Source of the DNA: a virus
Length of the DNA: 64,000 nucleotides
Virus record (IMG/VR): IMGVR_UViG_3300042541_001760
Coordinates: 53,689 to 117,688 of that record
Reading direction: 5' to 3' (one strand)
Below, piece by piece: positions 3,632 through 31,260 of the stretch. Positions within the stretch are counted from its first letter, which is position 1; the number at the start of each line of letters is the position of its first letter. The translations under genes and the position numbers were made by a program. Below the pieces are notes generated by a model that was not told the DNA's origin, searched no databases, and was given only the letters and a program-made list of their open reading frames with translations.

Positions 3632-5404
3632 TCATCGTTTGTTACCAAATAACCAACCATAGTCAATATAGTCCTGTCTTGATGCTCCTTGTTGTCTTGG
3701 GTCTTGGTATCTTTGTTGTATATTGGGCGATCCAGGATTAAACGAAATTGACTTGGCTGGAGACTCATCAACGTTAACCGTCCAAGATTCCAACATCGCT
3801 TTTGTATGTTCTGTAACCTTTCCTAATTGACTAAATGAAGATTCACCAACATAAATTGCCATCGCAATGGACATAAGTAAATCATCGTGTTGACCCTTTT
3901 GATGATCAGGTCTACCACTAATATAAACAAAAGTATTCATCTCGTTTAATAGACGATTACTATGAATAATAAAATTATGTCTTACCGCCTCCTCAAACGC
4001 CGCAATTATCTGAACTCTCTTATTATTGAAGTTAATACCCGGTATCTTCTCATTTTGCTTTGGGTCGTATTTCCATTTGTTTTGATAATCAACACCATCA
4101 ACATATAAATCCCTATAACCCAACTCCTGCATTTTTCTAGACGTAGATACTCCCATTCCTCCTGTTATATCAACAACAACAAAACAAGAATACATATTAG
4201 CCCATTTAAAGGCAATATCCGCCATAATGTCTGGTGGTACCTTACCAACATATTCGGCAACTTGTTCTCTCTCATCAAAATCTATAATTTGGAATGTTGA
4301 GTAATCCTCACTATCTCCTCTTGATACGTCAACCCCCATAATGTATTTGTGACCAATTACAGGTTCTTTCCATATCCATAAAGAGTTTGCCATCATCTTA
4401 TTTGTCGGCTCTGAAATGGTATTTTCACGAATCTTGGTAAGTGTCTTTGAATCAAACACGTTATCACCAGATCCAAGGAAGTTACACTCCAATTCCTGAG
4501 AAACTTTTCTCTTGTCGTATTTTAACTTCTTTACCATTCCCTCAAACCAAGAAGAACAAGGTTTAAATCCGTCTTTAAAATAAGGTTTTAGTTTTTCGTG
4601 GTCACCACTATTTGGGTGATAATGTTCTATTTTTACTACTGCATCTGATGGGTATTGTTCCTTATTTAACAAATAGTGAATAATATCATCCGTTTTAACC
4701 AAGAACATATCTTTGGTATATCTTGGATCTCTATACCAAAACATTTCAGATATTTTAAAATCATTAAACCCTCTTAACGCCTGGTCATAGATTTCGTAAT
4801 AAATGGGGTCATACCCGTTTGGTGTTGAAATTACAATAACTTTACCACCCGTAGATAGTGAAGCCATACAGGCTGACCAGAAATCCGCATCCGCTTCAAT
4901 GTAAGCAGCCTCATCAAATATTAGTATTGTTGGTGTATAACCACGTAAAGCATCCTTAGATGTTGCTACCGCCTTTACTTCACAACCATTTGTTAATTTG
5001 TAATGTCTTTGTGAGTTCTTTTCTTTAGCAAATCCAATATCAACCCAAGACGGCCATTGTTCAATAAACCCTCTGACTTTATTAGCCATCTCTTGGGCGG
5101 TATCCAATTTATTGGCGATAATTAGAATCTTCTCAGGTGTTTGTTTTTTCGCGAAGGCTATTTTCTTAGACGCCCAAGCGGCGGTTACGGTGGATACGCC
5201 CGCCTGTCTATACTTTAGGGCGATATTCTCGTTATTATTCTCATAATCGTCAAGTAAGGATATTTGGTCGGGAAACAATTCTAAAGGAACAAATCTAGAT
5301 ACCGTATTATCATACGTCTGTAAATACGTTTTAAGTGCATAAGGGGTATCCCTCATACACTTAACATATTCTATTAAAACTTGTTCCTTTGTTATATTTT
5401 GCAT
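3632..5404 (-). CDS. Terminase large subunit (TerL), T4 gp17-like
   Basis: 590-aa protein. N-terminal ATPase with Walker-B-like ILIFDEAAYIE and the adenine-binding/coupling region VIVISTPNG. C-terminal RNaseH-like nuclease with acidic motifs MGVDVSRGDSEDYSTFQIIDFDE. Adjacent to the portal gene. Confidence 0.9.
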   Translation of the reverse strand: MQNITKEQVLIEYVKCMRDTPYALKTYLQTYDNTVSRFVPLELFPDQISLLDDYENNNENIALKYRQAGVSTVTAAWASKKIAFAKKQTPEKILIIANKLDTAQEMANKVRGFIEQWPSWVDIGFAKEKNSQRHYKLTNGCEVKAVATSKDALRGYTPTILIFDEAAYIEADADFWSACMASLSTGGKVIVISTPNGYDPIYYEIYDQALRGFNDFKISEMFWYRDPRYTKDMFLVKTDDIIHYLLNKEQYPSDAVVKIEHYHPNSGDHEKLKPYFKDGFKPCSSWFEGMVKKLKYDKRKVSQELECNFLGSGDNVFDSKTLTKIRENTISEPTNKMMANSLWIWKEPVIGHKYIMGVDVSRGDSEDYSTFQIIDFDEREQVAEYVGKVPPDIMADIAFKWANMYSCFVVVDITGGMGVSTSRKMQELGYRDLYVDGVDYQNKWKYDPKQNEKIPGINFNNKRVQIIAAFEEAVRHNFIIHSNRLLNEMNTFVYISGRPDHQKGQHDDLLMSIAMAIYVGESSFSQLGKVTEHTKAMLESWTVNVDESPAKSISFNPGSPNIQQRYQDPRQQGASRQDYIDYGWLFGNKR

Positions 5405-12705: not shown

Positions 12706-13077
12706 TTAAAGCAAAGATATCTTTTTCTTTCTCTCAATCTTTTTTTCATTAGGGATAAACACGCTTAATAACCCATCCTCAATAGTTGCTTCAAGTTTAG
12801 AGGTGTCAATATTTAATCCCAAATCATAAGAGAAGTGAACACTCTTAGTTTTATCACCACTTGATGATTTAATTACACGACTACCATCAATGGTTAAAAT
12901 TGTGTCATCAACATCAACTTTTAAATTTGACTTATTAAAGCCAGGGACGCTGAATACATAATAAGCCCCATCTTCGGTTTTATGAACATCATAGTCACTG
13001 ACATAATTTCTTCTGAATTTAGCATCAGTAAAGTCGTTTAGGATTGTGTCGAAAATTGATAAATTTCCTGTTTTCAT
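12706..13077 (-). CDS. Small heat-shock protein, Hsp20/alpha-crystallin family
   Basis: 123 aa. ACD-like core YYVFSVPGFNKSNLKVDVDDTILTIDG...ATIEDGLLSVFIPNEKK. Confidence 0.75.
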   Translation of the reverse strand: MKTGNLSIFDTILNDFTDAKFRRNYVSDYDVHKTEDGAYYVFSVPGFNKSNLKVDVDDTILTIDGSRVIKSSSGDKTKSVHFSYDLGLNIDTSKLEATIEDGLLSVFIPNEKKIERKKKISLL

Positions 13078-13230: not shown

Positions 13231-15273
13231 ATGAATGAGATAATGGACGGTGATGGACCTTCATCAAGAAAAAAAGGCGACAACGATAGTGGTACTCCTG
13301 TACTGGATAACTTCAGTAAAGATTTAAATAAATTGGCTGAGGAAGGTAAATTAGATTCAGTTATTGGTAGAGATAAAGAGATATTAAGAATTGCTCAGAT
13401 ATTATCAAGAAGAAAGAAAAATAATCCTATTATTATTGGAGAACCGGGTTGTGGTAAGACCGCAATTGTTGAGGGATTGGCAATGAAAATCCAACAAGGT
13501 GAATGTCCGAGAAATTTAGCGGATAAGAGAATTGTCCTGTTAGATATGACATCCATTGTTGCGGGAACAAAATACAGAGGTCAGTTTGAGGAAAGAATGA
13601 AAGTGATTATTGAAGAATTACAATCACATCCCAACATTATTATCTTCATAGATGAGATTCACACCATTGTAGGTGCAGGTAATTCATCAGGATCATTGGA
13701 CGCTTCAAACATATTCAAACCAGCATTGGCAAGAGGTGAGATTCAATGTATCGGAGCTACAACACTTGATGAATACCGTAAAAACTTTGAGAAAGACGGA
13801 GCGTTGGAAAGAAGATTCCAAAAAGTGGTGGTTGACCCTTCAACGAAAGAAGAAACTCTACAAATTCTAAAAAACTCAAAAGACAAATACGAGAGTTACC
13901 ATAAAGTTATTTTTAGTGACGAAGTATTAATCACTTGTGTTGATTTGGCGGACAGATATATTACCGATAGAGAGTTTCCCGATAAGGCTTTTGATATTAT
14001 AGATGAAGTTGGGGCAAGAAGTCAGGTGGATATTAAAATGCCTGAAGTTATTGAGAAATTGAAATTGGACGCAATTGATATCAAACAACAAAAGATTGAT
14101 GTTGTAAAGAAACAGAATTACGAACAAGCGGCAGAACTTAGAGATAAGGAGAAAAAAATTCTGAATAAACTTCACGTAGAAAAAATGAAGTTTGAAGAAG
14201 AAATGAATATCAATAAGAAAGAAGTTGAGATTGAATTGGTTTATGAAGTTGTATCCAATATGACAAAAATTCCTGTTGGAAAACTTAACATTGACGATTC
14301 AAAATCATTGGTTGATTTGGAGGTTAATATCGGATCGAAAGTTATTGGTCAATCTGAAGCGGTTTCAAAAATATCAAAAGCAATTAGAAGAAATAGATTA
14401 GGTATTAAAGACCCAAATAGACCCATAGGATCGTTTATCTTCTTAGGATCCACAGGTGTGGGTAAAACACACTTAGCCAAGCAATTGGCGAAAGAGATAT
14501 TCGGTAGTGAAGATTCTTTAATTAGAGTTGATATGTCCGAATATCAAGAAAAACACTCAATCTCTCGTTTAATCGGATCTCCTCCGGGATATGTTGGTTA
14601 TGATGAAGGTGGTCAATTAACTGAACAAGTTAAAAACAAACCATACTCCGTTATTTTATTTGATGAAATTGAAAAGGCAAATAAAGACATATTCTCAACT
14701 TTACTACAGGTATTGGATGATGGTCACCTTACAGATGGATTGGGAAGAAAAATCAATTTCAAAAATTGTCTTATCATTATGACATCAAATATTGGTGTTA
14801 AAAAATTACAAGATTTTGGGGCTGGTGTTGGATTCCAAACTAAGTCCTATGTTGAAGAAGAACAAAAACGAGACATCCTTAAAAAGGAACTTCAAAAATT
14901 CTTCGCACCTGAATTCCTAAACAGAATTGATGATGTGATAATCTTTAACACCCTAAAACAAGAACAAATTAACGAAATCGTTAAGATTGAACTTAATAAG
15001 TTATCATCAAGATTGACTAAAATCAAATACCAATTCAAATTTGAATCTTCGGTAACTGATATGATATCAAAAGTTGGTTTTGATGAAATGTATGGGGCTA
15101 GACCTTTAAAGAGGGCTATCCAAGATAAAATTGAGGATTATATTTCCGAGGAAGTTCTTAGAGGTGAACTTAAAACCGAAACACCTTATGTGGTTACGGC
15201 AGAGAATGACGTTATTATTATAACGGAAGAGAAAAAAGGAAAGAAGGGTAAAACAAAAAAGGAGGTTGAATAA
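13231..15273 (+). CDS. ClpC/ClpB-like double AAA+ chaperone ATPase lacking the N-domain
   Basis: 680 aa. D1 Walker A GEPGCGKTAIVEGLA and Walker B IIFIDEIHTIVGAG. Short UVR-like middle motif KQNYEQAAELRDKEKKI. D2 FLGSTGVGKTHLAKQLA...RVDMSEYQEKHSISRLIGSPPGYVGYDEGGQLTE...LFDEIEKA...LQVLDDGHLTDGLGR. Confidence 0.9.
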   Translation: MNEIMDGDGPSSRKKGDNDSGTPVLDNFSKDLNKLAEEGKLDSVIGRDKEILRIAQILSRRKKNNPIIIGEPGCGKTAIVEGLAMKIQQGECPRNLADKRIVLLDMTSIVAGTKYRGQFEERMKVIIEELQSHPNIIIFIDEIHTIVGAGNSSGSLDASNIFKPALARGEIQCIGATTLDEYRKNFEKDGALERRFQKVVVDPSTKEETLQILKNSKDKYESYHKVIFSDEVLITCVDLADRYITDREFPDKAFDIIDEVGARSQVDIKMPEVIEKLKLDAIDIKQQKIDVVKKQNYEQAAELRDKEKKILNKLHVEKMKFEEEMNINKKEVEIELVYEVVSNMTKIPVGKLNIDDSKSLVDLEVNIGSKVIGQSEAVSKISKAIRRNRLGIKDPNRPIGSFIFLGSTGVGKTHLAKQLAKEIFGSEDSLIRVDMSEYQEKHSISRLIGSPPGYVGYDEGGQLTEQVKNKPYSVILFDEIEKANKDIFSTLLQVLDDGHLTDGLGRKINFKNCLIIMTSNIGVKKLQDFGAGVGFQTKSYVEEEQKRDILKKELQKFFAPEFLNRIDDVIIFNTLKQEQINEIVKIELNKLSSRLTKIKYQFKFESSVTDMISKVGFDEMYGARPLKRAIQDKIEDYISEEVLRGELKTETPYVVTAENDVIIITEEKKGKKGKTKKEVE

Positions 15274-15287
15274 CCTCCTTTTTTTAA
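15255..15287. terminator. Bidirectional rho-independent terminator between convergent genes
   Basis: GGAGGTT-GAAT-AACCTCC hairpin flanked by an A-run upstream and TTTTTTT downstream. Confidence 0.55.
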
Positions 15288-16117
15288 AATGGACTATAAA
15301 TTTTATTAGGTTTCTCCTCTTTAAATTGGTGTTTGGTGTAACCCAATGATTCTATCATTTTTTTACCAACTTTGATACCATTGTAGACATCCTCAACCAC
15401 CACATATTCATTTGCGGTGTGGTAATCGTAGTACCCAATGGAGATATTGATACAAGAAAAATCAAAAGATTCTTTAAGAGCGTAAACATCGGTATAAGGG
15501 TGTGAGAAATATTTTAGTTTATCAGGAAAACTTTCAGTTAGAACTTTATCACATTCTTTAAAAAAGTCAGTCCGTCTGTCAAATAATGTTGTTCCCCAAC
15601 ATCTTTCAGTAACCATCCAATTTTCGGGGGCGTCGAACTGAATTGCGTAACCAACATTTGTAAAGAATGATTTGTCGGCTTTACGAGACCCGTGACATCC
15701 TGTTTCTTCAGATACAAAGAACGCCGCCTTTAAGTTGGGTAACTCTTTTAGTAATTCTAAACAAGCATAGACACCACACTTGTCATCACCTCCAATACCT
15801 GTAGGGTTTCCTTCGTTATTATACGCTTTTAGGGATAACTTAATTTCACCTTGAGCGTTTTCAAGTTGTTCTTCAACGACATTGATTGAGTCCATATTAT
15901 GAACCGTATCAGTGTGTGATACAACACAAGGGAACATAAACCCATTAGGTAAATCACCGGTTTGTTTGGTGGCATAAACATTAAGATGTTCATCCACCGT
16001 ATGGTCAATGTTGTTTTCCGTTAACCAATCAATAAGAAATTGAACCATCTGTTCTTCCTTATAAGTTTTACTTGGTACTGACAATACGTCTTTTAGTAAT
16101 TGATAATTTCTTTCCAT
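15284..16117 (-). CDS. M20/M28/M42-type metallopeptidase
   Basis: 277 aa. Metal-ligand motifs HTDTV, GGDDKCG and the catalytic Glu-Glu SEETGCHGS. Confidence 0.55.
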   Translation of the reverse strand: MERNYQLLKDVLSVPSKTYKEEQMVQFLIDWLTENNIDHTVDEHLNVYATKQTGDLPNGFMFPCVVSHTDTVHNMDSINVVEEQLENAQGEIKLSLKAYNNEGNPTGIGGDDKCGVYACLELLKELPNLKAAFFVSEETGCHGSRKADKSFFTNVGYAIQFDAPENWMVTERCWGTTLFDRRTDFFKECDKVLTESFPDKLKYFSHPYTDVYALKESFDFSCINISIGYYDYHTANEYVVVEDVYNGIKVGKKMIESLGYTKHQFKEEKPNKIYSPF

Positions 16118-16621: not shown

Positions 16622-17986
16622 TCACTCATCTTTAAATAACTCAGGATGATATATTAAAGTATAAAAATCTTCTAATGTCTTGTCAGTATATTTTATATTA
16701 CAACCTCCGGAAACACAACCTGTTCTAATATTTAATAAATTTGTTTTAGGATCAATTGTGACAATCTCAAACCATCTAGTTTTGTCCTTTGGAAATGCAT
16801 ATCGTTTAGTATAAACATATTTCTTATTTATCTCACGAACTATTTCCTTAAATTCCACCATATTTAAAAAATTATCCGAGTCCTCCAATTCGTCAATTAT
16901 TTTATCTAAGGAATAACTAACTAACCTGTTAAAACTTTCACCATCAAAATGTTCATAACCCTCAACTTCATACGCATACTCATAAAAATCCTGAACCTCA
17001 ATTGAGTGACCAAGTTCCTTTAAGACCTCCTCCAATGTCATATTGGTTCCATATCTTTCAAATAACTTAATTAATATTCTAACTGTGGTTATGTATTTAT
17101 AAAAACAACTTAATTTCATTAAACCATAAGGTCTAAAAATATCACATAATTCATCTTTTATTTCCTCCCTTTGAGCGGCGTTTTTGCCGTTATTTGTTTC
17201 AGAGTTATATTCGTTATATATATCTTGAGATATTTTTGGGAAAAATTCATCCATTGCTACTGCAATTTTGGCATTTGTCTCACTCTCACCATCCATAGTT
17301 AAATTAGGTGCGATATATTTTAAAATATCATTAACTTTTTGTTTGTTTTCATCATTAAAGTCATATAACACATATCCCTCCTTCCATTGATAATCATCAT
17401 CCCAATCAACAAAATCATATCCATTACCGTAATGGTCAAAAATCGCATTTACATACCATTTACCTTGGTCACCCAAATCAAATAATTCAAAATACTCAGA
17501 ATCATTTCTAAACGTTAATGTTATCTTAGATTTTTCAGGTTTGTTTTTATCAAAAAATAATTTATATATCATAGGATCTAACTGACCCAAAACATAATCA
17601 TCTTTCGGTTCAATACCCATAGCAATTGCCTTTAATGCTCTATATGTGCTAGTACCAAACGGGTTAATAATCGTCATTAATTTACTCTCCAATGAGGGAA
17701 ACATCTCAACTAAACTTTCAAACTCTAAATAATTTTGGTCATTATCCATTATTGACATAGACCCATAATTAGGATTGAATAGACTAGCTGAATTTTCCCT
17801 GTTTTCTTTATCTATAATAAAATATAAATCACCATTTCTATAAACACTACCCCAATTACTACCGGCAAATCTATCACCACCAAAATACTTAGCGGAAATA
17901 GGACCATTTGCCATTACTATAAGATACTTTGAATTCTCAAGAATGATTTCCGATTCGGTGTAAGCGTCATTTTCTAATTCGTCCAT
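16622..17986 (-). CDS. Hypothetical protein
   Basis: 454-aa ORF. Acidic and Tyr/Phe-rich. No motif recognised. Confidence 0.55.
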   Translation of the reverse strand: MDELENDAYTESEIILENSKYLIVMANGPISAKYFGGDRFAGSNWGSVYRNGDLYFIIDKENRENSASLFNPNYGSMSIMDNDQNYLEFESLVEMFPSLESKLMTIINPFGTSTYRALKAIAMGIEPKDDYVLGQLDPMIYKLFFDKNKPEKSKITLTFRNDSEYFELFDLGDQGKWYVNAIFDHYGNGYDFVDWDDDYQWKEGYVLYDFNDENKQKVNDILKYIAPNLTMDGESETNAKIAVAMDEFFPKISQDIYNEYNSETNNGKNAAQREEIKDELCDIFRPYGLMKLSCFYKYITTVRILIKLFERYGTNMTLEEVLKELGHSIEVQDFYEYAYEVEGYEHFDGESFNRLVSYSLDKIIDELEDSDNFLNMVEFKEIVREINKKYVYTKRYAFPKDKTRWFEIVTIDPKTNLLNIRTGCVSGGCNIKYTDKTLEDFYTLIYHPELFKDE

Positions 17987-18075
17987 ATAACTTTTTTACA
18001 TAAATATCCGATTTATTTTGTTTTTTCAAATATCTATTGTATATTTGTAATCAGAGACAAGTTCTTTAAAATATT

Positions 18076-18468
18076 GGGTCCAAAATTGGTATCGACTGGC
18101 ATAGTTGGATATTAAGAGCATACCGAGGCTGAGTTAACCTTGTAAAACTGACTTAAACCGATATACGGCAACGTAATCAACAAACTTTCGGCAGTCGGAC
18201 TTGTTCGCACTTCTGAAACCGTAGCAGTAGCCTAAGGCGAATCTACAACGGGTCGGCGTACATACAACCTAGGAACAGAAGTACTTGCAAAAGGTGTGGT
18301 TTCTATCTAAAAAGAAACATGTGGAGGATTAGTTCTCAGTAAACCGAACCACTTTAAAAATAAGGGAATTGTGAAGTTTCGGATTGGTTAGAAAACCAAT
18401 GTCCTATGTATGTAGAACTTAGTAATCAATATGAACAACACGAGGGTTCGAATCCCTCTGGATCCACC
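18076..18468 (+). ncRNA. ssrA: tmRNA (transfer-messenger RNA)
   Basis: The 5' end GGGTCCAAAATTGGTATCGACTGG resembles the E. coli tmRNA 5' end GGGGCUGAUUCUGGAUUCGACGGG. GCATACCGAGG matches the conserved GCAUGCCGAGG. The 3' end carries the T-arm GAGGGTTCGAATCCCTC and the acceptor strand TGGATCC-A-CC, which pairs with the 5' GGGTCCA. That pairing includes a G3:U70 wobble, the alanine identity element. An internal tag frame ends ...SETVAVA-TAA at 18233-18235. The element lies in a 500-nt ORF-free gap and is followed by a T-run. Confidence 0.7.
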
Positions 18469-18503
18469 TCTAAACCTCATCAGAAATGGTGGGGTTTTTT
18501 TAT

Positions 18504-18845
18504 TTAATAAAGATTAGTTATCCAGTTATATCTTGACTCAATCTTAGGTAAGTATCTATCTAATAAAAAATTATATATTTCATCAGACGGAAATTCGTCT
18601 TGACCCCAATTTGATAAATCTCCGTGATACTCGTCAATAATACCATTTATTATACGTCTTTTAAAATCATCAAATTCCATCCTATTACCATCTCTAAGTT
18701 CTCTTAAAAAAATATCAGTAACGTAATTTAAATTATCTAGTATGTCACTATCTAATGAACTAATATCAACTCTTCTACGTAGAAAAGAAGATTCATTAAT
18801 CCCCATCACTTCCTGTATCCTCTGTATATTTTCTTGTAGATTCAT
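18504..18845 (-). CDS. Leader-family protein (MNLQENIQRIQEVMG N-terminus)
   Basis: 113 aa. Conserved N-terminal 15-mer shared with 20289, 20605, 21462 and 22235. A TATAAATAT box abuts the start codon. Confidence 0.6.
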   Translation of the reverse strand: MNLQENIQRIQEVMGINESSFLRRRVDISSLDSDILDNLNYVTDIFLRELRDGNRMEFDDFKRRIINGIIDEYHGDLSNWGQDEFPSDEIYNFLLDRYLPKIESRYNWITNLY

Positions 18846-18860: not shown

Positions 18861-19580
18861 TCACACATTGATAATTTTCCATTTCCCTTTGAAGTCCTCA
18901 ACCAAACAAGTTGAATTCTCGCAAAAGTCGCCTGAGTTCATATAATCATCGGTTAATTTTGGGTAATGGATATGTCCACATACGGTAACATCATACCCCT
19001 TTTCTTTTGTTAGTGATTTTGCGTTATCTTCAAAATCAGATACAAAATTAATTACACCTTTAACGCTTTGTTTTACCACATTAGCCAATGAATGGTATGG
19101 TAAATTAAACCATCTCCTTATGTAGTTATATAGGGTGTTGAATCTAATAACAAAATCATACGACCACCCACCGATAACCGCCAACCATCTGGCTTCCATA
19201 ATAACAAAATCCAATACATCCCCGTGATAACAATAATAACTACGACCATCGGCTCCGATATGGACATATTTTCTTACAATCTCTATATTATTTAATGTGA
19301 ATGGTATGAACTCCTTTAGAAAGTCATCGTGATTTCCTCTAATATAAATTACCTTAGTTCCCTTCTCACTTCTTTTCATAAACTTACGAAATATCTTGGA
19401 GCAGTTGTTATTCCATTTTCCCCCACTTTTTAACGCCCATCCATCAATAATATCACCATTTAAAATTAATGTTTCAGATTCGTTCTCTTCCAAAAACTTT
19501 ATAATTTTATTGGTTTGTGATTGTCTTGAACCAAGATGTAGATCACTCATTATTATCGTTCTCCACTTTTTCATTTCCAA
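18861..19580 (-). CDS. Calcineurin-like metallophosphoesterase, LpxH-like (UDP-2,3-diacylglucosamine diphosphatase family)
   Basis: 239 aa. Motifs SDLHLG, LNGDIIDGW, IRGNHDDFL and YHGDVLDF parallel the LpxH motifs DLHL / GDLFEAWIGDD / HGNRDFL / HGDTLCTDD. Confidence 0.65.
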   Translation of the reverse strand: MEMKKWRTIIMSDLHLGSRQSQTNKIIKFLEENESETLILNGDIIDGWALKSGGKWNNNCSKIFRKFMKRSEKGTKVIYIRGNHDDFLKEFIPFTLNNIEIVRKYVHIGADGRSYYCYHGDVLDFVIMEARWLAVIGGWSYDFVIRFNTLYNYIRRWFNLPYHSLANVVKQSVKGVINFVSDFEDNAKSLTKEKGYDVTVCGHIHYPKLTDDYMNSGDFCENSTCLVEDFKGKWKIINV

Positions 19581-24390: not shown

Positions 24391-24702
24391 TCCAATAAAC
24401 CCAAGTGTAATGTTAGTGACACATCACTCTCGATACGTTCGACCACGAGACGGATATTTTAATCGGTTAACTAAAACCAATGATTCTGTCCTTTTTGTTA
24501 ACTCTAAAGGACAACGTGAGTAACATATCATCTCACGTATTAAAGAGTAACGATTTTTTTGTTTTACGGGTATGGGGTGTAAAACTATTTAAACCATCGA
24601 AAAAAATAAAAGACCCCACAGAATAAATTTATTTAATCTTTTAATTTAACCTCCTAAAGAGACGGCTTTATTCTATATTCCGTCAAAAAAACGAGTCACT
24701 TG

Positions 24703-24777
24703 TTGCGGGAGCAGGAATCGAACCTGCGTGGTTGAGCTTATGAGACTCAGCTGGATCCGTCTCCAGTCTACCCCGCC
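24703..24777 (-). tRNA. tRNA-Met (CAT), initiator-like acceptor stem
   Basis: Reverse complement GGCGGGG-TA...CTCATAA...GCAGG-TTCGATT-CCTGC-TCCCGCA-A. The acceptor closely resembles E. coli tRNA-fMet (CGCGGGG/CCCCGCAA), including a 1:72 mismatch. Anticodon loop CTCATAA. The D-arm is irregular, so the call needs tRNAscan. Confidence 0.55.
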
Positions 24778-25794
24778 TTGGCTTACGTTGAGATTACACG
24801 TTTTAGTAGAAATCTTTGATGGGATTATTGTTTCCCCACGTATCCACCATCTTTTGAATGGTAATTTCCAGTGATGGTCTTTTAGGTGTACCACTCCTTG
24901 AATTTCTAACTACTCTCCTACTAATCCGTTCTCTTCAAACTTGCGGTCTGATTAGGTCTTCGACAACCTAGAGATTTTTCATAAGAATACATTCTGACTT
25001 GCGGTCTTCGTGTGCAATGGACATCCCATTACTATGTAATCACCTTTCGTTAGAAACTGATAGACACTTTTGCTTTCTTTTTAAATTTTTAGTAAAAAAA
25101 TCGAGTTATGTGTTGTGGATGTATCAAAGTAGTGGTCTACCGTAAGCTTCGTCGTCTTTTGAACAACAAAATACTAAACTACTTCGTGAAGTGTCCCCAC
25201 CTCCATACTTTAAGATAACTTCGTAACAAGATTTTGGTAAATCTTTGATAAGGACAGTAGCGACACCACTCGTTCTCTATCTTACCTTTCGGTTTTAAGT
25301 TATCTTTCATATTGGAACACGCAATTGTATCGTTGGAGCGATAGTTCTCGCAATATTCCTATGGGTTATTCTTATTGGTGTTCCCACCTCAACTTGACAA
25401 TCCACATTGCCTTGTCACCCAACCACTTTCTCTAAAGCGTCGCCCTCAATACTGAAGGTCAGGTGATATCCCACTTGTGTACTCAAGTTCAGTTACCTGA
25501 ACCGCAAACTCACTTACACTTGTGAATCCACTTTATCCTACTTTCGTAGTTTATTTAACGACCATACACGGCCGACTATCTTTATGTTTTACCGAAATAA
25601 AACAATGGATAATATTTTTTATGTCAAAGAACAATAATCATTTTTACTAATTAGAACTATGCTACTGACGGCTTAATTAGGGGTTCTCACCGCTCTAAAA
25701 TGTCAGGTTCACACCAGACCTCCTTTTCTAATTGTTTGACAAAGGTAGTAAATAAATTTCATTTGTCAAGCAATTTTTTAATTTTTTTTCGTCA

Positions 25795-25845
25795 CCCCCA
25801 CCCTATTAAACCTAAACTTTATAACTTAAATACTGATAGGGTGGG
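25795..25845. other. Perfect 11-bp stem-loop (CCCCACCCTAT ... ATAGGGTGGGG) with 29-nt loop
   Basis: Seen directly in the sequence at the edge of the ORF-free region. Preceded by a T-run. Confidence 0.5.
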
Positions 25846-26087
25846 GTAACTCTCAAATCTTTTACAAATGTAGGAAGAATTTTCGTTACTTCCAAATTTA
25901 TTTTATGATTTTTTATGATATTTTTAAAGAACTGATTTGAATCAAATGTCTGTCTCAAATCCTCTACAAATGTAGTAATAAGTTTTTGAATTACCAAACC
26001 ATAACCGGAAATTATTTTTAGAATTGACTTTATGGTTTATTACATCTATATTCTGGTACGTTAATAAACCATTAAAACTAATTAAAA

Positions 26088-26270
26088 ATGAAAAATGTAT
26101 TTTATGTATTTGCTTTAGCATCTTCTCTATTCTTCTCTTCTTGTGGTGGATCCACAGAAGAACAACCTGTAGCATCTGATTCAACGATGGTTGATTCTTG
26201 CTCAGTTGACACTTGTAAAGTTGATACTTGTAAGGTAGGTAGTGTTAAAGTGGATACTATTAAAAAGTAA
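26088..26270 (+). CDS. Small putative lipoprotein with VDTCK tandem repeats
   Basis: 60 aa. Signal peptide with Cys (LFFSSCGG). Repeats VDSCSVDTCKVDTCKV. Confidence 0.35.
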   Translation: MKNVFYVFALASSLFFSSCGGSTEEQPVASDSTMVDSCSVDTCKVDTCKVGSVKVDTIKK

Positions 26271-26358
26271 CCATATACTATCTAAGAGATTAGCCCTGTT
26301 CTTTTTAAGGATGGGGTTTTTTATTTACATAATGTAGTATTTATTTAAAACACGAATT

Positions 26359-27102
26359 ATGAATTTAATAAGAATAGCGCAAAAACTAAGTAGGTTCTTT
26401 ACTCGCCAAAACAGAGCGAGTGATGTTTTAAGTGAATTAATAAGAGACAAAAAACATAGGGAATTTTTTAATGCGGTAAAACCTTTAGATGGGATTAAAT
26501 TAGCATTCCTTATAAATGGTGTTAATAAGGGGTTAGATTTAGAATCAATGTTAGTAGAGATTGAAAATAACCTAATTTCATTCACAGTAGTGGAGTTTGA
26601 AGATGTCGCATCAATGGTTACTTGTAATGAGTGTAATGGTAATGAGACGATTAGTTGCGATTATTGTGGTGGTGATGGTTATATTAGCAGTGATGATGAT
26701 GATGAAGACGATGAAGAGTGTGACCATTGTGGTGGTGACGGATATGAACTATGTGACCATTGCGATGGAAACGGAGAAATTGAGGATGATACAACAACCG
26801 ATTATACAATTTCAACTTATGTCACTTTTGATAGTAAATTAAGTGAGGACGCTGAATTACTTTATAGTGATGATATGGAAGTAACTAAAGACACGTTAAA
26901 CCTTAATTTTATGAACCCAAAATTAATTTATTTGGGTATGGAGCGACGTAGTGGTGAAAACGATAATATAGATGAAGATTATTGGGGTAATTCTTATGTC
27001 AATGACATTGACCGTGAAAACGACCCCAATACCTATTTTAGATCTAACTCAATAACAATTAATAGAAATATTTCTAATTTATCTCACACATTTAGAGGTT
27101 AG
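26359..27102 (+). CDS. DnaJ-type zinc-finger (4x CxxCxGxG) acidic protein
   Basis: 247 aa. Repeats CNECNGNE, CDYCGGDG, CDHCGGDG and CDHCDGNG separated by acidic runs. A GTATTTATTT box sits 13 nt upstream of the start. Confidence 0.55.
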   Translation: MNLIRIAQKLSRFFTRQNRASDVLSELIRDKKHREFFNAVKPLDGIKLAFLINGVNKGLDLESMLVEIENNLISFTVVEFEDVASMVTCNECNGNETISCDYCGGDGYISSDDDDEDDEECDHCGGDGYELCDHCDGNGEIEDDTTTDYTISTYVTFDSKLSEDAELLYSDDMEVTKDTLNLNFMNPKLIYLGMERRSGENDNIDEDYWGNSYVNDIDRENDPNTYFRSNSITINRNISNLSHTFRG

Positions 27103-27431
27103 AATTTATTTCTATGAATATCATTCTCAAGTCTAAGTCGGTCATTTTCTTTCTGAAGATAATCAACTTGGATGTGTAGTTTAGCAACCTCAGCGGTTAG
27201 TTCCGTAATTGTAATTCTCATTAACTCCTTATCTTTTGAGGACTCCTCCAACAAAGTTTCTAACTTAACAACTCTTTCTCTAAGATCGTCGCGATACATC
27301 ATATCATCTCTATGACCTATCATTTCCTTCTTAGTTTGTATTGCTAATTTTCTCTCCCAGAATTTCCATGCCGCGGTAGAGGTTAGTACAGTGATAAGTG
27401 TTATTACGATTGTATATACCTGTTGTTCCAT
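27099..27431 (-). CDS. N-terminal TM helix plus coiled-coil protein (i-spanin-like topology)
   Basis: 110 aa. The TM segment VYTIVITLITVLTSTAAW is followed by a heptad-rich coiled coil. Confidence 0.4.
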   Translation of the reverse strand: MEQQVYTIVITLITVLTSTAAWKFWERKLAIQTKKEMIGHRDDMMYRDDLRERVVKLETLLEESSKDKELMRITITELTAEVAKLHIQVDYLQKENDRLRLENDIHRNKF

Positions 27432-27489
27432 AGCTATTTACTTTTACAAATAAATATCTACAATTACTCGTTTTTTTTAGTTTTGTAAG

Positions 27490-27810
27490 TTATTGTTTAA
27501 ATATGTTTACAAAACCTGTGATGGTTAGTGTTACACCAGCAACAAACATAATATTATTTGGTGTATTTAAAAAAATGTTAGGTTTAACGTAGGTTGAAGT
27601 GTATGAATTTTTAAAAGATGAGTAACTACTTACCCACTCTCCATCCGCCCTATTTTGGAGAATGGCGGCAGTTAATAAACTACCACCACTAACCGTTAGT
27701 ACCAAAGACACATTTTTGTTTTTTGAAACAGTCATATGTTGAGCCTCTGTGTTACCACAAAGACCCAACACTAACAACAAGACAAAAATAACTATTTTAA
27801 AGTTTTTCAT
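27490..27810 (-). CDS. Signal-peptide protein (possible lipoprotein/o-spanin-like)
   Basis: 106 aa. N-terminus MKNFKIVIFVLLLVLGLCGN with a Cys after the hydrophobic core. Confidence 0.4.
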   Translation of the reverse strand: MKNFKIVIFVLLLVLGLCGNTEAQHMTVSKNKNVSLVLTVSGGSLLTAAILQNRADGEWVSSYSSFKNSYTSTYVKPNIFLNTPNNIMFVAGVTLTITGFVNIFKQ

Positions 27811-28858
27811 ATTTCGGTTTGATTAATTTCCATATTATGGATGAATAATCTTTCTTGTCCCACATTGAGAACATAACCGAATGTAGTTCTTTCTTTATAT
27901 ATTTTTGAACGAACTCAGCAAATTCTTTCTTTGTGGGTTCAGGATAAACATCACCATACTTACCATATCTAAATCCGTCGTGATTTTTACCGCAATACTC
28001 AGATATTTGGAAATGATTGTATTTCAAATCTCTAGCATACACTTTTATCTTATGGAAAAACTCATCAGGGACATCTTTAAGTATTTCATTTATGTCATCA
28101 CCTGAACTCAATACATCCCAAACAGATGTGGTGGATACATTGGTCATTATTTTATGTAAACGAAGATACTCAGCACCTTTTATCTTCATTCGGTTACCAT
28201 TAGAGAATTTAACAACGAATCCCTCCTCATTACTATTTATCAAATCCTTCAAAGTGGAGTAATCACTGATGCCGTCATATTTTTTAACCAGTTTGAAACC
28301 TATATTGGATATTAGATTTTTATGTCTTATATCCTCGTCATCACCATCGTGTAATTTAACCTCATACCCTGTCTTGGTATTTATCATACCCAATAACACC
28401 AAATCTTCAAATGGGTATTTTACCACTATACGATTCTGGTTATATATGATTTCAAAAAGGTAAGTATAATCTTTATGAAGTTTATCAAAATCGTAGTTAA
28501 ACATCATCTCATACCCTTTAACCGCTTGATCGGAAGTAAATGACCCACGAGTTGCCATTATCCAACCACCTTCATAATAGAAGAATATACCCAAAGACCC
28601 ATCCATCTTTTCATAAACATCAAAATCTGAAGTTGGGGTATGTTTACCCTCATCCATATTAAAGAATTTCTTGAATGGTCTGGCAACGATATTTCCCTTA
28701 TCGTCAGTAACAAGACCGCGAGTTTGTAGGGTAACATCATTCCATAAACCTTCATATTGGACTTTCTCAGAATAGTTCCATATAGTCAAAGGGAGGGTTG
28801 GATGTACTTGTTTGTACACCAACCCGTCATCATAATATGTGTTAAGTTTATTCACCAT
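27797..28858 (-). CDS. ATP-dependent RNA ligase, T4 Rnl1-like
   Basis: 353 aa. Nucleotidyltransferase motif I EKMDGSLGIFF (KxDGS). Motif IV EEGFVVKF. Motif V lysines KIKGAEY. Confidence 0.75.
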   Translation of the reverse strand: MVNKLNTYYDDGLVYKQVHPTLPLTIWNYSEKVQYEGLWNDVTLQTRGLVTDDKGNIVARPFKKFFNMDEGKHTPTSDFDVYEKMDGSLGIFFYYEGGWIMATRGSFTSDQAVKGYEMMFNYDFDKLHKDYTYLFEIIYNQNRIVVKYPFEDLVLLGMINTKTGYEVKLHDGDDEDIRHKNLISNIGFKLVKKYDGISDYSTLKDLINSNEEGFVVKFSNGNRMKIKGAEYLRLHKIMTNVSTTSVWDVLSSGDDINEILKDVPDEFFHKIKVYARDLKYNHFQISEYCGKNHDGFRYGKYGDVYPEPTKKEFAEFVQKYIKKELHSVMFSMWDKKDYSSIIWKLIKPKYEKL

Positions 28859-29057
28859 CTGATTCTTTATTTTTAATTGCCTCGTCTAATGTGTTATTAA
28901 TATGTCGGTATAAAACAACCAAGGTGTTAATTATAATTAATCCAATCCACCAATCAATATCATTAACACCATCAGGAAAAAAATTAGTCAAAATAAGACC
29001 TAAAGTCGCCCCGAAAGCAAAATTAAACGCAAATCTAACGAACGACGGATTATTCAT
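28848..29057 (-). CDS. Small two-TM membrane protein (holin-like topology)
   Basis: 69 aa with two hydrophobic segments. Overlaps the ligase gene by 11 nt. Confidence 0.4.
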   Translation of the reverse strand: MNNPSFVRFAFNFAFGATLGLILTNFFPDGVNDIDWWIGLIIINTLVVLYRHINNTLDEAIKNKESDGE

Positions 29058-29070
29058 ATTTTTTATTTAG

Positions 29071-29144
29071 TGGGCCATCTTGGACTCGAACCAAGGACTT
29101 GCGGATTATGAGTCCGATACTCTAACCAACTGAGTTAAAAGCCC
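29071..29144 (-). tRNA. tRNA-Met (CAT) (elongator or Ile-lysidine type not distinguishable by eye)
   Basis: Reverse complement GGGCTTT-TA-ACTC-AGTTGGTTA-GAGT-A-TCGGA-CTCATAA-TCCGC-AAGTC-CTTGG-TTCGAGT-CCAAG-ATGGCCC-A. Good cloverleaf. One mismatch in the acceptor stem and one in the anticodon stem. Confidence 0.7.
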
Positions 29145-29323
29145 TAATTATTTTACAAATATACAATTTTATTTTTAATCCTCCAAATCCAAATCGTCAA
29201 ATCTATTATTTTTTTGTGGTTTAGATTTGGAGGTTTTAACCTTTTTACTTTGATTGTTACTTTTTGACTTAGGTTGGTCGTTCTTCTGACTACGATATGT
29301 CTTGCCCATTTTTAATTTAATTA

Positions 29324-29998
29324 TTATCCTACGATTCCTTTAATATCATCTGTGTGGTGGTCAAATCCCATTTCAGAACTGATTGGTTGTTTATCCAACA
29401 TAGGAACAACCTCAGTCATTAGGTTATATGGTCTGAATTCAGGGTGACCATCCATTCCAACATCCATTCTCTTACCATTACCAAATCGTTTATCTGTCGG
29501 CAAGTGACAATGCCCGTGAAGGTGACCAATACCCTTGTTTAATCCATCCCAAGATGAAATTGGGTAGTGCATAATGACAAATTTATTTGAACCCATTATT
29601 AGTTCAGTATATTGGTCAACACTTTTAAATAGACCCCTAACTCCGTCTTTATTGTTACTGATATGGTGGTCGTGATTACCAAGAGTTAGGTGAATGTTTT
29701 TACACACAAGTCGATCCCAAAATTTACGAATGTTCTCAAAACCACCAAAACTCCAATCACCAAGGTGAATTAGAATATCATCCTGACCCACAACCTCATT
29801 GATATTACGAACAATAGTGTCATTCATTTCATCAAGAGATGAAAAATCACGAGTTTGGTCAACAGGAATAGTTCCATCAGCCAATCTCCAATCTGTAACA
29901 CCCCTACAAATATTTTTATGACCGAAGTGAGTGTCGGAAGTAATCCAAACATTTGGAAAACGACCTTTACTATCTGCGGTTATTTTAATTGGTTTCAT
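29324..29998 (-). CDS. Calcineurin-like metallophosphoesterase (candidate 2',3'-phosphatase of an RNA-repair set)
   Basis: 224 aa. Full motif set SDTHFGH, HLGDWSFGG, LGNHDHH, HGHCHLP. Confidence 0.75.
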   Translation of the reverse strand: MKPIKITADSKGRFPNVWITSDTHFGHKNICRGVTDWRLADGTIPVDQTRDFSSLDEMNDTIVRNINEVVGQDDILIHLGDWSFGGFENIRKFWDRLVCKNIHLTLGNHDHHISNNKDGVRGLFKSVDQYTELIMGSNKFVIMHYPISSWDGLNKGIGHLHGHCHLPTDKRFGNGKRMDVGMDGHPEFRPYNLMTEVVPMLDKQPISSEMGFDHHTDDIKGIVG

Positions 29999-30276
29999 AG
30001 TTTTGTTTTTTCGTGTGATATGTACTTGTATTTCTTAACACTTTTTGAAATTAATGTTCCATTCTTCCTAACAAGATCCCAATCTTCATTTATATAAATG
30101 TAATCATAATAGACGACATTTATGGTATCTCTTTTTTTATCTAAATGGATTATTTCAAGTTTATCCGAATAAATGGCTTTATTACCTGTCATATTAGGAT
30201 TACAGGTTTGTATTGTTATGAAGAATGTCAATAACAATCCTGTTAAGAAAATGTATTTTAAAAATTTAGAAGACAT
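29995..30276 (-). CDS. Putative lipoprotein
   Basis: 93 aa. Signal peptide ending FFITIQTCN. Confidence 0.4.
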   Translation of the reverse strand: MSSKFLKYIFLTGLLLTFFITIQTCNPNMTGNKAIYSDKLEIIHLDKKRDTINVVYYDYIYINEDWDLVRKNGTLISKSVKKYKYISHEKTKL

Positions 30277-30478
30277 ATGCGATTAATTGGAATACTGCGA
30301 TTATGGTTAATAGTAATGAAGTGCCAAATAAAAACATTTGAATTAGAATTGACATTGATGAGTATTTACCGTTTCTTGGGGATATGAAGTTTCTTAGCAT
30401 TTTTAGTTTATTTTAGTTTGTCAAAGGTAATATAAATAATCGGTTAAAACAAATTTTTTGTGGATGGAGTAGGAAACA

Positions 30479-30781
30479 TTATCCCCATCCCCTATTAAAA
30501 CCAACCTTTTCTTCATCACGACCAATTGACTGAGTAATTAACATATGTTTTGTAACATCTTCAGGACTCAACCAACCAACAACATCGTTATTATCTGAAG
30601 TCCATATCTCAAAGGTATTGACACCATCACCATATAAACCCTGAGACCCACCAACAACGGATATTGAATGTCCGTTTGGAAAATCCAATGTCGCTTGAAC
30701 TCCACCCCTACTATTTGGGTGGGGATTAAAGACCAAATCATCAAATGTTTTTACTTTAAATTTTTCAAAAAAATCTTTCAT
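30479..30781 (-). CDS. Hypothetical protein
   Basis: 100-aa ORF. Confidence 0.45.
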   Translation of the reverse strand: MKDFFEKFKVKTFDDLVFNPHPNSRGGVQATLDFPNGHSISVVGGSQGLYGDGVNTFEIWTSDNNDVVGWLSPEDVTKHMLITQSIGRDEEKVGFNRGWG

Positions 30782-30957
30782 AATATAGTTTTTAAATTGT
30801 TAGTATCCCTTTATTTGTTGGATTTTAGTACCAACACCCAATCTCGTAACTACTGATGCGGATAATTCACCCGTTACCGTTTGATTGGACTGAGTGGCTT
30901 CACTAGTAACGTCAACCAAATTATCTGTTGTTAACGTTTAACCCCCACTCTTGTTGT

Positions 30958-31037
30958 GATCAGGACAGGATTCGAACCTGCTTTAGGGCTTACGACCTAT
31001 GATAATCTATTTACGACAACAACCATGTCGCCACCTG
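30958..31037 (-). tRNA. Aberrant tRNA-like element / possible tRNA pseudogene
   Basis: The reverse complement has acceptor GGTCAGG...CCTGATC-A and a canonical T-arm GCAGG-TTCGAAT-CCTGT. I could not fold a canonical anticodon arm from the intervening 31 nt. Confidence 0.3.
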
Positions 31038-31260
31038 ACCATTTCCCCACCTTGAGATTATTGGTGAGTAGTTATTTCGGTTTTTTCTTCTGTTCCAAAA
31101 CCTGTGAGGCGTCCCTCGTGAAAACAGTCAATCCTTACTTGGAAGCTAGCGGATAAGCTAACTTTGACTCCAATGAGTAGTCAATTAAAGCTGATACTAC
31201 CAAACACTTACCTATTGTTTAAGTCTTAAGTTAAAGACTCTGAGTATCTCTTACTCATTG

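Follow-up and report, generated by a model that had tools for sequence, protein, structure and literature searches.

The DNA analysed here, a stretch of 64,000 nt (positions 53,689 to 117,688 of the IMG/VR virus record IMGVR_UViG_3300042541_001760; hereafter the window), carries a genuine phage trans-translation RNA, of a kind already known from other phages. Sequence comparison indicates that the gene very probably encodes a functional one-piece tmRNA (ssrA) of a large freshwater phage clade, which probably infects Bacteroidota. The tmRNA family to which it belongs is large and was previously unannotated. The coordinates of the tmRNA, its structural elements and its neighbouring genes are given in Table 1.

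Table 1. Features of the tmRNA gene and its surroundings in the window (position 1 is the first letter of the window).
Feature	Position	Strand	Basis or remark
Hsp20	12706-13077		
ClpC-type double AAA+ unfoldase without N-domain	13231-15273	+	upstream of the tmRNA, same strand
M20-family PepT-like peptidase, short, 277 aa	15284-16117	-	conserved neighbour
orf454, conserved ORF, 454 aa	16622-17986	-	next to the tmRNA, in divergent orientation
Candidate Bacteroidota-type -7 promoter box TATATTTG	18040-18047	+	inferred, sequence only
tmRNA gene, one-piece, standard form	18076-18468	+	Rfam RF00023 match, >140 phage loci, covariation
Acceptor stem, 5′ strand GGGUCCA	18076-18082	+	7 bp with UGGAUCC 18459-18465
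Helix 2d, 5′ strand GCAUAC	18118-18123	+	pairs with GUAUGU 18408-18413
Pseudoknot PK1, CGAGG/CCUUG interleaved with UGAGUUA/UGACUUA	18124-18155	+	sequence reading
Tag frame GNVINKLSAVGLVRTSETVAVA, 22 codons	18167-18235	+	resume codon GGC 18167-18169, stop TAA 18233-18235
Tag peptide of the window tmRNA, as AGNVINKLSAVGLVRTSETVAVA			
Helix 5 hairpin GCC-UAA-GGC, stop codon in loop	18230-18238	+	sequence reading
Pseudoknot PK2, GGGU/ACCU interleaved with GUAC/GUAC	18250-18284	+	stems 100% and 92% paired
Conserved PK4-region hairpin AUUGG/CCAAU	18383-18400	+	96% paired, 5/5 pairs change on both sides
T-arm GAGGG-UUCGAAU-CCCUC	18442-18458	+	96.7% paired, both-side changes at 5/5 pairs
Intrinsic terminator, 11-bp stem then T-run	18472-18504	+	terminator scan

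An initial annotation, made by reading the sequence, had placed a tmRNA in a gap free of open reading frames and had proposed ARAGORN and the Rfam models as checks. No ORF of at least 60 aa is present within 17987-18503, the gap holding the gene, and all sequence features listed in that annotation were recovered. The covariance model RF00023 matched 18076-18469 on the plus strand with 83.2 bits against a gathering score of 47 (E 9.4e-31), and the alignment spans the entire model (positions 1-374 of 374), although the score is modest and the PK2-PK4 region was aligned by the model with low confidence. The check with ARAGORN turned out negative, as the program reported no tmRNA in the window or in the section 17901-18600, even at relaxed thresholds (-ps, -ps90 and -ps80). 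This miss is due to the limited sensitivity of ARAGORN, which detected 10 of 57 copies of the family, and is not evidence against the gene.

The T-arm, the acceptor strand and the alanine identity pair G3:U70 of the acceptor stem were confirmed at the 3′ end as annotated, but the full CCA was not: a discriminator A and CC stand directly 3′ of the T-arm and acceptor strand, the encoded sequence is ACC-U, which lacks the last A of CCA. Among 49 distinct homologues the acceptor stem forms standard pairs in 100% of the cases, with both-side changes at 4 of its 7 pairs, and pair 3 is G:U in all 49. The block GCAUACCGAGG of the window corresponds to the consensus CAUGCCGAGG, which comprises helix 2d and the 5′ strand of PK1. 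The gene has an intrinsic terminator of its own, and in relatives, too, a GC hairpin and a T-run follow the tmRNA. Upstream, the putative -7 box TATATTTG lies 28 nt from the mature 5′ end, and in related loci TATTTGTA or CTTTGTA precedes the tmRNA. The motif TANNTTTG is over-represented in the 64-kb window (126 matches versus 96.9 ± 8.5 expected) and also precedes tRNA-Met and tRNA-Glu (5′ ends at 29144 and 33662) by 12 nt. A conserved leader motif upstream of the tmRNA, AGTTCTTTR, is not enriched in the window and is therefore not claimed as a promoter.

For the analysis of covariation, 36 base pairs were tested in 49 distinct tmRNA copies and compared with 500 shuffles. Changes on both sides were observed at 30 of the 36 pairs, and standard pairs occupied 91.7% of the cells versus 74.4% in the shuffles, none of which reached the observed value. 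The covariation score was 0.529 versus 0.213 in the shuffles, and in slid controls just 27-50% of the cells were paired. The tmRNA architecture is conserved far beyond chance. Helix 2d was 100% paired, with covariation at 4 of its 6 pairs; the outer parts of helix 2 were aligned by Rfam with mismatches. Both stems of PK1 are present in the window tmRNA immediately upstream of the resume codon; in the family, some subfamilies of which are misaligned here, pairing amounts to 78% and 83%, and in each stem 5 pairs show both-side changes. PK2 carries the family-specific motif ACCUAGGAACAGAAGU, and both-side changes were observed at 2 pairs of its first stem and 4 of its second. The topology of PK3/PK4 differs between tmRNA subfamilies. 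The helix 5 position is occupied in relatives by hairpins of differing length, and because of this variation helix 5 is unsupported by the column count; evidence from alignment columns, in which the hairpins are out of register, was dropped, and helix 5 is reported as a per-sequence observation only. Taken as a whole, the architecture comprises the tRNA-like domain, helix 2, PK1, resume codon, tag ORF, helix-5 stop and PK2, and compensatory changes preserve it on over 100 phage contigs.

Numerous temperate elements use ssrA as their integration site and bear its 3′ portion, and the gene might in principle be a host ssrA, an att-site remnant captured where a prophage ends, or a piece of bacterial DNA joined by mis-assembly. 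Such an origin is hardly credible. Both tmRNA halves are present and pair with each other, as the initial annotation had argued in favour of a complete gene, phage genes lie on both sides, portal and large terminase are encoded at 1706-5404 of the window, and no integrase adjoins the tmRNA. Moreover, over 140 phage contigs of IMG/VR, the largest of 333 kb, bear homologues in the same context, the same tmRNA being conserved in 63 ClpC-seeded and 79 motif-seeded loci. Two family-specific patterns gave no tmRNA match in 185,579 species genomes: the PK2 motif ACCUAGGAACAGAAGU, with matches on more than 119 IMG/VR contigs, had none there, and the 33 matches of the tag-start pattern were all due to chance, none of them fitting the tmRNA family HMM. 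The att-fragment and host-gene readings were rejected on the paired halves, the phage context and the lack of tmRNA matches to the two patterns among these species genomes, and the tmRNA is phage-borne. In GenBank phages no match was obtained by blastn with the tmRNA, by megablast with a 21-kb stretch or by tblastn with the consensus tag, and a search of IMG/VR with the exact 3′-end pattern gave 0 matches.

The internal frame was found to end in ...SETVAVA followed by TAA, as had been read initially. It is open over 21-22 codons in 57 of 57 homologues, its codon-position entropies (0.96, 0.40 and 1.19) make the second position the most conserved, and its pN/pS is 0.49. Gly11 and Leu12 are invariant despite synonymous codon switches, which in the tag include Leu TTA/CTT, Arg CGT/AGA and Gly GGT/GGA, and 48 of 49 copies retain Lys6. 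The tag frame evolves like coding sequence, under purifying selection at the amino-acid level. The resume codon is preceded by A at -4 in 49 of 49 copies within a context, Y(-5) A(-4) N N Y(-1), that is invariant in the family; U85-A86 of E. coli tmRNA forms a comparable resume context. ARAGORN independently gave the same resume codon and tag in 6 relatives.

The clade consensus of the tag reads G-N-V-L-N-K-M-x-x-L-G-L-[VI]-R-x-x-E-V-x-V-A. The canonical ssrA degron end ...[YF]-A-[LV]-A-A is absent from the window tag, which terminates in T-V-A-V-A, and the non-canonical tag with a non-polar C-terminus that had been predicted is borne out by the conservation of the V-x-V-A end in the family (terminal Ala in 48 of 49 copies, Val at -1 in 40 and Val at -3 in 38). 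The tag is clade-specific, has twice the usual length and does not end in the canonical ...ALAA, so that it is probably the phage, and not merely its host, that determines what happens to tagged chains. For comparison, the commonest tag length of tmRNAs is 10 aa (PMC11915505).

SmpB was not found in the 64-kb window by tblastn or by Pfam searches of about 57 ORFs, and the phage presumably uses the SmpB of its host. In two relatives (L076 and L047) SmpB adjoins the tmRNA, with Pfam scores of 177 and 151 bits that lie above the NCBIfam equivalog cut-off, and tblastn matches to SmpB stand beside the tmRNA in L022, L023 and L041. The possibility that the RNA is a decoy, which titrates host SmpB and shuts down host trans-translation instead of tagging, has a precedent in the tRNA-like-domain-only molecule of mycobacteriophage DS6A (PMC4131195) and would agree with the lack of a detected SmpB in the window. 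However, the RNA is full length with PK1 and PK2, its tag frame is under amino-acid-level purifying selection, and relatives bring their own SmpB; on these grounds the decoy reading, which is highly improbable, was rejected.

As a functional tmRNA, the RNA would have a promoter of its own, RNase P and the 3′ processing enzymes of the host would trim the transcript, and the CCA would be completed by the host CCA-adding enzyme, as the gene itself supplies just ACC. Host AlaRS would charge it with alanine via G3:U70, and together with SmpB, here presumably that of the host, it would enter ribosomes stalled on truncated or cleaved mRNA. Translation would then switch to the tag frame, add Ala and GNVINKLSAVGLVRTSETVAVA and terminate, whereby the ribosome would be freed. 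The gain for the phage may be translation capacity sustained during infection, a benefit that would fit the translation-maintenance cargo of the window, namely 7 tRNAs and a T4 Rnl1-type RNA ligase. The leading candidate for a receptor of the tag would be the co-inherited ClpC without N-domain, acting with ClpP, and the PepT-like peptidase could trim the peptides released by ClpC/ClpP.

The ClpC-like ATPase had been described initially as lacking the N-domain, and both Pfam and the alignment with Staphylococcus aureus ClpC agree. The phage protein (680 aa) scored 716 bits to S. aureus ClpC, and its residues 15-646 align to ClpC residues 153-785 in one stretch, but to ClpB in two; identity across the aligned region is about 55% as estimated by eye. 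The Pfam domains AAA, AAA_lid_9, UVR, AAA_2 and ClpB_D2-small were assigned, and Clp_N gave no match in the protein, which is therefore ClpC-like and not a full ClpC. Like ClpC of Bacillus and Staphylococcus and mycobacterial ClpC1, it has a double AAA+ ring, a UVR M-domain, a VGF loop and pore loops. The Walker A/B and pore-loop motifs GEPGCGKT, FIDEIH, KYRG, GSTGVGKT, LFDEIEKA and GYVGY are present in the alignment, the UVR motif lies at residues 284-310 in a short M-domain, not the long coiled coil of ClpB, and the ClpP-docking loop AGVGFQ (VGF) aligns to the ClpC loop. Unlike ClpC, the phage protein, whose alignment starts at about ClpC residue 150-153, is without the N-domain of about 150 residues that binds the MecA/McsB adaptors and phospho-arginine, and therefore its substrate choice must work in another way.

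With respect to the other neighbours, the M20 peptidase of the initial annotation was confirmed (Pfam M20 26.4 bits and M42 24.3 bits, PHROG 4191 'peptidase' 1e-39, NCBIfam PepT-like 2.6e-10) and is found in 78 of 80 loci. The Hsp20 named alongside it is present but does not belong to the conserved block, occurring in just 13 of 80 loci. Homologues of orf454 are all unannotated metagenomic proteins; its AlphaFold2 model is good (pLDDT 88) and has no meaningful structural neighbour in PDB or BFVD. On the downstream side of the tmRNA the loci vary. Besides these genes, the window encodes a SprB/CHU_C type IX secretion protein, which is a clue to the host, as is the enrichment of TAnnTTTG in the window.

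Each of the 63 testable ClpC-seeded loci (63 of 63) has the block of ClpC, PepT-like peptidase, orf454 and tmRNA, and the linkage of ClpC and tmRNA is a feature of a large clade. The tagging and unfolding module that had been postulated was overstated. In a sample that started from the tmRNA, 24 loci had 6 kb or more of upstream sequence, and ClpC was absent from 8 of them. In this sample ClpC lay upstream of 15 of 16 tmRNAs with GL-type tags and of 0 of 7 tmRNAs of a sister group whose tags have the canonical end ...YAVAA (...DYAVAA). In L156, which has a tmRNA of the GL type, no ClpC lies within 6.3 kb. The nearest GenBank homologues of the phage ClpC, 57-60% identical and likewise without N-domain, are located in phage genomes of 634 and 642 kb, in which no tmRNA was detected within 10 kb of this gene. 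The ClpC-tmRNA link is not obligatory, and it is the synteny only that points to a possible connection between the tmRNA and ClpC function.

Two accounts of what becomes of the tagged chains were weighed against these data. According to the first, the phage ClpC reads the tag directly and docks ClpP via its VGF loop, the tagged chains are degraded, and the PepT-like peptidase turns the peptides into amino acids that phage protein synthesis can reuse. The conserved block in 63 of 63 loci, the retention of Walker motifs, pore loops and VGF loop without the adaptor-binding N-domain, and the association of ClpC with GL-type rather than ...YAVAA tags would all suit this account, and amino-acid recycling has already been proposed for phage tmRNAs (PMC9004378). 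The association is, however, confounded by phylogeny because two clades are compared, ClpC and tmRNA occur apart in L156 and in the 634-642-kb phages, and ClpP was not found in the 64-kb window; this account is on the unlikely side. In its strictest form, a phage-private circuit, the 22-residue degron would be unread by host proteases and adaptors and read by phage ClpC with ClpP, the PepT-like peptidase finishing the work, which is to be regarded as unlikely. If true, such a circuit would give the phage control over what becomes of every stalled nascent chain, independently of host quality control, and would serve amino-acid recycling or the clearing of products of host nuclease attack.

According to the second account, which is quite possible without being probable, the tmRNA serves the ordinary rescue of ribosomes and its tag has drifted; proteases of the host (ClpXP, Lon and Tsp) would deal with the tagged chains, and the proximity of ClpC would reflect inherited gene order with no coupling of function. 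In its non-polar C-terminal ...V-A the tag is similar to generic ssrA ends, and long tags exist in bacteria, such as those of Mycoplasma, which are degraded by Lon. The restriction of the ClpC-tmRNA linkage to a clade and the variable region downstream of the tmRNA, as simple synteny predicts, are also consistent with ordinary rescue. Drift of the tag is countered by the invariant Gly11 and Leu12, the near-invariant Lys6 (48/49), the strongly conserved V-x-V-A end and the synonymous codon turnover; this conservation implies a specific protein partner that reads far more than the last 2-3 residues.

The tmRNA of the window resembles bacterial one-piece SsrA in its tRNA-like domain with G3:U70, its T-arm and long helix 2, as well as in PK1 before the resume codon, A at -4, the helix-5 stop, PK2 and the discriminator A with CC. 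Unlike bacterial SsrA, it is phage-carried, reaches 83 bits only, escapes ARAGORN and has no SmpB found in the window, and its tag of 21-22 aa contains the internal core K-M/L-x-x-L-G-L-[VI]-R and a V-x-V-A end instead of ...ALAA.

Phage tmRNAs are uncommon, as the initial annotation had stated, yet they are well documented (PMC4131195, PMC7162821, PMC9004378). They are known from mycobacteriophages of the Bxz1 group and Bacillus phage G (PMC4131195), huge phages with both tmRNA and SmpB have been described (PMC7162821), and tmRNA was reported in 2.3% of 18,146 phage genomes (PMC9004378). Like these, the family described here consists of complete ssrA genes that accompany tRNAs on large phage genomes of lytic type, with SmpB sometimes co-encoded, and the same roles may be proposed, namely maintenance of hijacked ribosomes or tagging for recycling. 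It differs from the reported phage tmRNAs in that no GenBank phage sequence matches, the tag family is different and clade-wide synteny exists with a ClpC without N-domain. The family is one-piece, whereas the tmRNAs of Melnitz and the pelagimyophages, marine myophages, are two-piece (PMC9004378). Phage tmRNAs are usually counted with ARAGORN, as in the surveys of these papers, and to this program the family is mostly invisible; as only 10 of 57 copies are seen and none is found in GenBank phages at the search sensitivities used, the prevalence of the family in environmental jumbo phages is likely underestimated. The clade with non-canonical tags and ClpC and its ...YAVAA sister clade without ClpC provide a natural experiment on tag function. 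If the tag were a phage-specific degron, this would be the first case of a virus that supplies the writer of a proteolysis tag together with its reader; otherwise, the phage would be just one more that boosts ribosome rescue.

Intron-containing tmRNA genes with a group I intron in the T-psi-C loop are known from bacteria (PMC11915505). The tmRNA of the window is intron-free. Three relatives (L045, L050 and L080), which are phage genes, carry a group I intron in the T-loop as the bacterial genes do. In L045 the intron is inserted after the first two U's of the T-loop, with U at -1 and a terminal G.

The tmRNA gene proposed in the initial annotation was examined with the Rfam covariance models, and a full-length match to RF00023 was obtained at 18076-18469 (+) with 83.2 bits (E-value 9.4e-31; gathering score 47). 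The hallmarks claimed for it were all found in the sequence, namely both ends, which form an acceptor stem of 5′ GGGUCCA and 3′ UGGAUCC with G3:U70 as wobble, the T-arm GAGGG-UUCGAAU-CCCUC, the conserved GCAUACCGAGG block, comprising helix 2d and the first strand of pseudoknot PK1, and an internal frame whose last residues, ...SETVAVA, precede the stop TAA at 18233-18235. The gap around the gene (17987-18503) is indeed free of ORFs of at least 60 aa, and the gene is followed by a terminator with an 11-bp stem and a T-run. The 3′ end consists of the discriminator A, CC and then U, so that CCA has to be completed post-transcriptionally. ARAGORN, also named as a check, missed the gene, at relaxed thresholds too.

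Table. Positions of the tmRNA and of further features in the window and in related loci (L-numbers; positions are those of the respective locus).
Feature	Locus	Position	Strand	Remark
Portal	window	1706-3568		
Large terminase	window	3632-5404		
ClpC-like ATPase	window	13231-15273	+	
PepT-like M20 peptidase	window	15284-16117	-	
orf454	window	16622-17986	-	454 aa
tmRNA	window	18076-18468	+	tag frame 18167-18235
Terminator	window	18472-18504		3′ of tmRNA
Metallophosphoesterase	window	18861-19580	-	~400 nt downstream of tmRNA
Seven tRNA genes	window	24702-33662	-	Met (two), Tyr, Cys, Thr, Arg, Glu
GOLLD RNA (RF02032)	window	24785-25186	-	305.9 bits
T4 Rnl1-type RNA ligase	window	27797-28858	-	
HNH endonuclease	window	34593-35090	+	directly before SprB/CHU_C gene
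SprB repeats, PKD domains, CHU_C type IX secretion sorting signal	window	35054-37630	+	858 aa
Small AAA_33 kinase-like protein	window	52010-52438	-	
IMPDH/GMP-reductase-family protein	window	54924-55970	-	Pfam, 128.8 bits
tmRNA, T-loop variant	L003	16795-17164		family member
tmRNA, T-loop variant	L070	8144-8559		family member
tmRNA, T-loop variant	L071	8500-8910		family member
tmRNA, T-loop variant	L078	14687-15080		family member
SmpB	L076	15615-16049	+	Pfam, 151-177 bits
SmpB	L047	14843-15292	-	Pfam, 151-177 bits
Sister-group tmRNA	L174	13363-13749		others in L117, L123, L145, L149, L155, L175
GOLLD RNA	L045	11887-12296		
GOLLD RNA	L114	7535-7940		
GOLLD RNA	L115	4055-4461		
Group I intron (RF00028)	L045	10641-10865		in tmRNA gene; 95-98 bits
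Group I intron (RF00028)	L050	15089-15316		in tmRNA gene; 95-98 bits
Group I intron (RF00028)	L080	~15140-15335		in tmRNA gene; 95-98 bits

Covariation was analysed in 49 distinct copies at 36 pairs of helix 2d, both stems each of PK1 and PK2, the PK4-region hairpin and the T-arm. Standard pairs occupied 91.7% of the cells versus 74.4% in shuffles, with 0 of 500 shuffles reaching the observed value; both sides had changed at 30 of the 36 pairs, and the covariation score was 0.529 versus 0.213. When the 3′ partners were slid by 1-3 columns as a control, pairing fell to 27-50%. The acceptor stem, scored separately after left-justification of the 5′ end, was 100% paired in these copies; four of its pairs show compensatory changes, and G3:U70 was present in 49/49; PK3 and PK4 vary from subfamily to subfamily. 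In four relatives (L003, L070, L071 and L078) the T-loop UUCGAnU is replaced by GGCGGUA, GGCGGCA or GGCAGAG and the D-loop-analogue UGG by UAG, paired changes that look like tertiary (D-loop/T-loop) covariation. The Rfam scan took in L070, L071 and L078 but not L003; the three tmRNAs scored under the gathering score and were caught only by the family profile.

The tag was read from GGC at 18167, the codon that Rfam places on the resume codon of its consensus. The frame is open in every homologue, with 21 or 22 codons and TAA, TAG or TGA as stop, and has the consensus G-N-V-L-N-K-M-x-x-L-G-L-[VI]-R-x-x-E-V-x-V-A. Entropy at codon positions 1/2/3 was 0.96/0.40/1.19 and pN/pS was 0.49; Gly11 and Leu12 are invariant with varying codons (GGT/GGA and TTA/CTT/CTA), and Arg14 is encoded by CGT or AGA. 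This variation pattern is that of coding sequence. The context upstream of the resume codon is invariant (A at -4, pyrimidines at -5 and -1) and is similar to U85-A86 of E. coli tmRNA. The tag ends in V-x-V-A, in contrast to the canonical ...ALAA end, and is about twice as long as tags most often are (10 aa; PMC11915505).

With the neighbouring ATPase as seed >600 IMG/VR loci were retrieved and 80 were kept. A tmRNA homologue was found in 57 of these by nhmmer with the window tmRNA and in 63 with the family profile, 2-5 kb downstream of the ATPase and always on the same strand; since the 17 remaining loci all stop within or before the gene preceding the tmRNA, it is present in 63/63 testable loci. 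A tmRNA-first scan with the family PK2 motif yielded >119 further contigs (largest 333 kb). Nothing similar was found among GenBank phages, and two family-specific patterns gave no tmRNA in 185,579 species (one genome each). ARAGORN detects ten relatives, with the identical resume codon and tag called in six. Phage tmRNAs as such are already documented in mycobacteriophages and Bacillus phage G (PMC4131195), together with SmpB in huge phages (PMC7162821) and in 2.3% of 18,146 phage genomes (PMC9004378); what sets the present case apart is that the family is large and unannotated and that ARAGORN mostly misses it, as well as its private long tag and the clade-wide synteny with a truncated ClpC.

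This ATPase had been described as ClpC/ClpB-like; its alignment to S. aureus ClpC in one stretch (716 bits, residues 15-646 to 153-785) bears out the ClpC part and not the ClpB part, and the N-domain is lacking, as claimed. Both Walker sets, pore loops and a short M-domain with UVR are present, and an AGVGFQ loop sits where ClpC has the ClpP-docking VGF loop. The conserved block consists of M23 peptidase, ClpC, PepT-like M20 peptidase, orf454 and tmRNA, followed by DNA that is variable among loci. Hsp20, originally counted in the module, lies outside this block and occurs in only 13/80 loci. For orf454 a confident fold was predicted (pLDDT 88), and structural and family searches gave no informative match. 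Neither SmpB nor ClpP was found within the 64-kb window. SmpB directly adjoins the tmRNA in five relatives (L076, L047, L022, L023 and L041), two of them confirmed by Pfam and one of these also above the NCBIfam equivalog cut-off.

Given the architecture, the covariation, the coding constraint on the tag, the terminator of its own and SmpB in relatives, the window RNA is very probably a working phage tmRNA. Its transcript would be processed, CCA would be added after transcription, and host AlaRS and host SmpB would charge and serve it, respectively, so that ribosomes may stay available when infection truncates or cleaves mRNAs. Recycling of tagged proteins by phage tmRNA has been a matter of speculation (PMC9004378). 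That the internal core of the tag is so strongly conserved implies a specific protein reader, for which the co-inherited ClpC without adaptor domain is the obvious, if rather doubtful, candidate. Of the 24 tmRNA-first loci whose upstream DNA spans at least 6 kb, 16 have ClpC; seven of the other eight are sister-group members, and the eighth has a variant of the window-type tag. By tag type, ClpC linkage amounts to 15/16 for window-type tags and 0/7 for ...YAVAA tags, a suggestive correlation, yet confounded by phylogeny. Handling of the tag by host proteases, with ClpC merely syntenic, is at least as likely as reading by ClpC and a serious possibility, if short of an even chance. Sister-group tags are long and different with a canonical end (DEMSTMTFEDLMAFVGADYAVAA or AEELSSFTFEDAMAFVGADYAVAA); these tmRNAs, with tags DEMSTMTFEDLMAFVGADYAVAA or AEELSS[FW]TFEDAMAFVGADYAVAA, share the PK2 motif with the family, and none has ClpC, the PepT-like gene or orf454 upstream.

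The closest GenBank homologues of the ClpC-like protein are encoded in uncultured phage genomes of 634 and 642 kb. Their N-domain-less ClpC (701 aa) has tRNAs close by and GOLLD 2-6 kb upstream, whereas tmRNA, the PepT-like gene and orf454 are all absent from the 10 kb around it; GOLLD and this ClpC therefore co-travel more widely than the tmRNA. In the window GOLLD directly adjoins tRNA-Met (24702-24777, -), and in the related locus L045 it lies near the tmRNA. Group I introns split the tmRNA T-loop in L045, L050 and L080. The L045 junction (GAGGGUU / intron...G / CGAGUCCCUC) places the insertion past the first two loop U's, a subsite at which bacterial introns are reported only from class Bacteroidia (PMC11915505), in agreement with the host proposed below; this suggests intron exchange between host and phage ssrA genes.

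Two features point to a Bacteroidota host: the SprB/CHU_C type IX protein, which is a strong clue, and TAnnTTTG, the -7 promoter motif of Bacteroidota, which is enriched in the window (126 observed versus 97 expected); huge phages predicted to replicate in Bacteroidetes were reported by Al-Shayeb et al. (PMC7162821). Such boxes precede tRNA-Met (5′ end 29144) and tRNA-Glu (5′ end 33662) by 12 nt, and another precedes the tmRNA by 28 nt. All seven tRNAs are on the strand opposite the tmRNA; together with both, the RNA ligase, the AAA_33 protein and the metallophosphoesterase may constitute a tRNA/RNA repair kit. The window also encodes several cell-wall hydrolases, and the IMPDH/GMP-reductase-family gene looks like an auxiliary nucleotide-metabolism gene. 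The SprB/CHU_C protein is an odd cargo for a phage.
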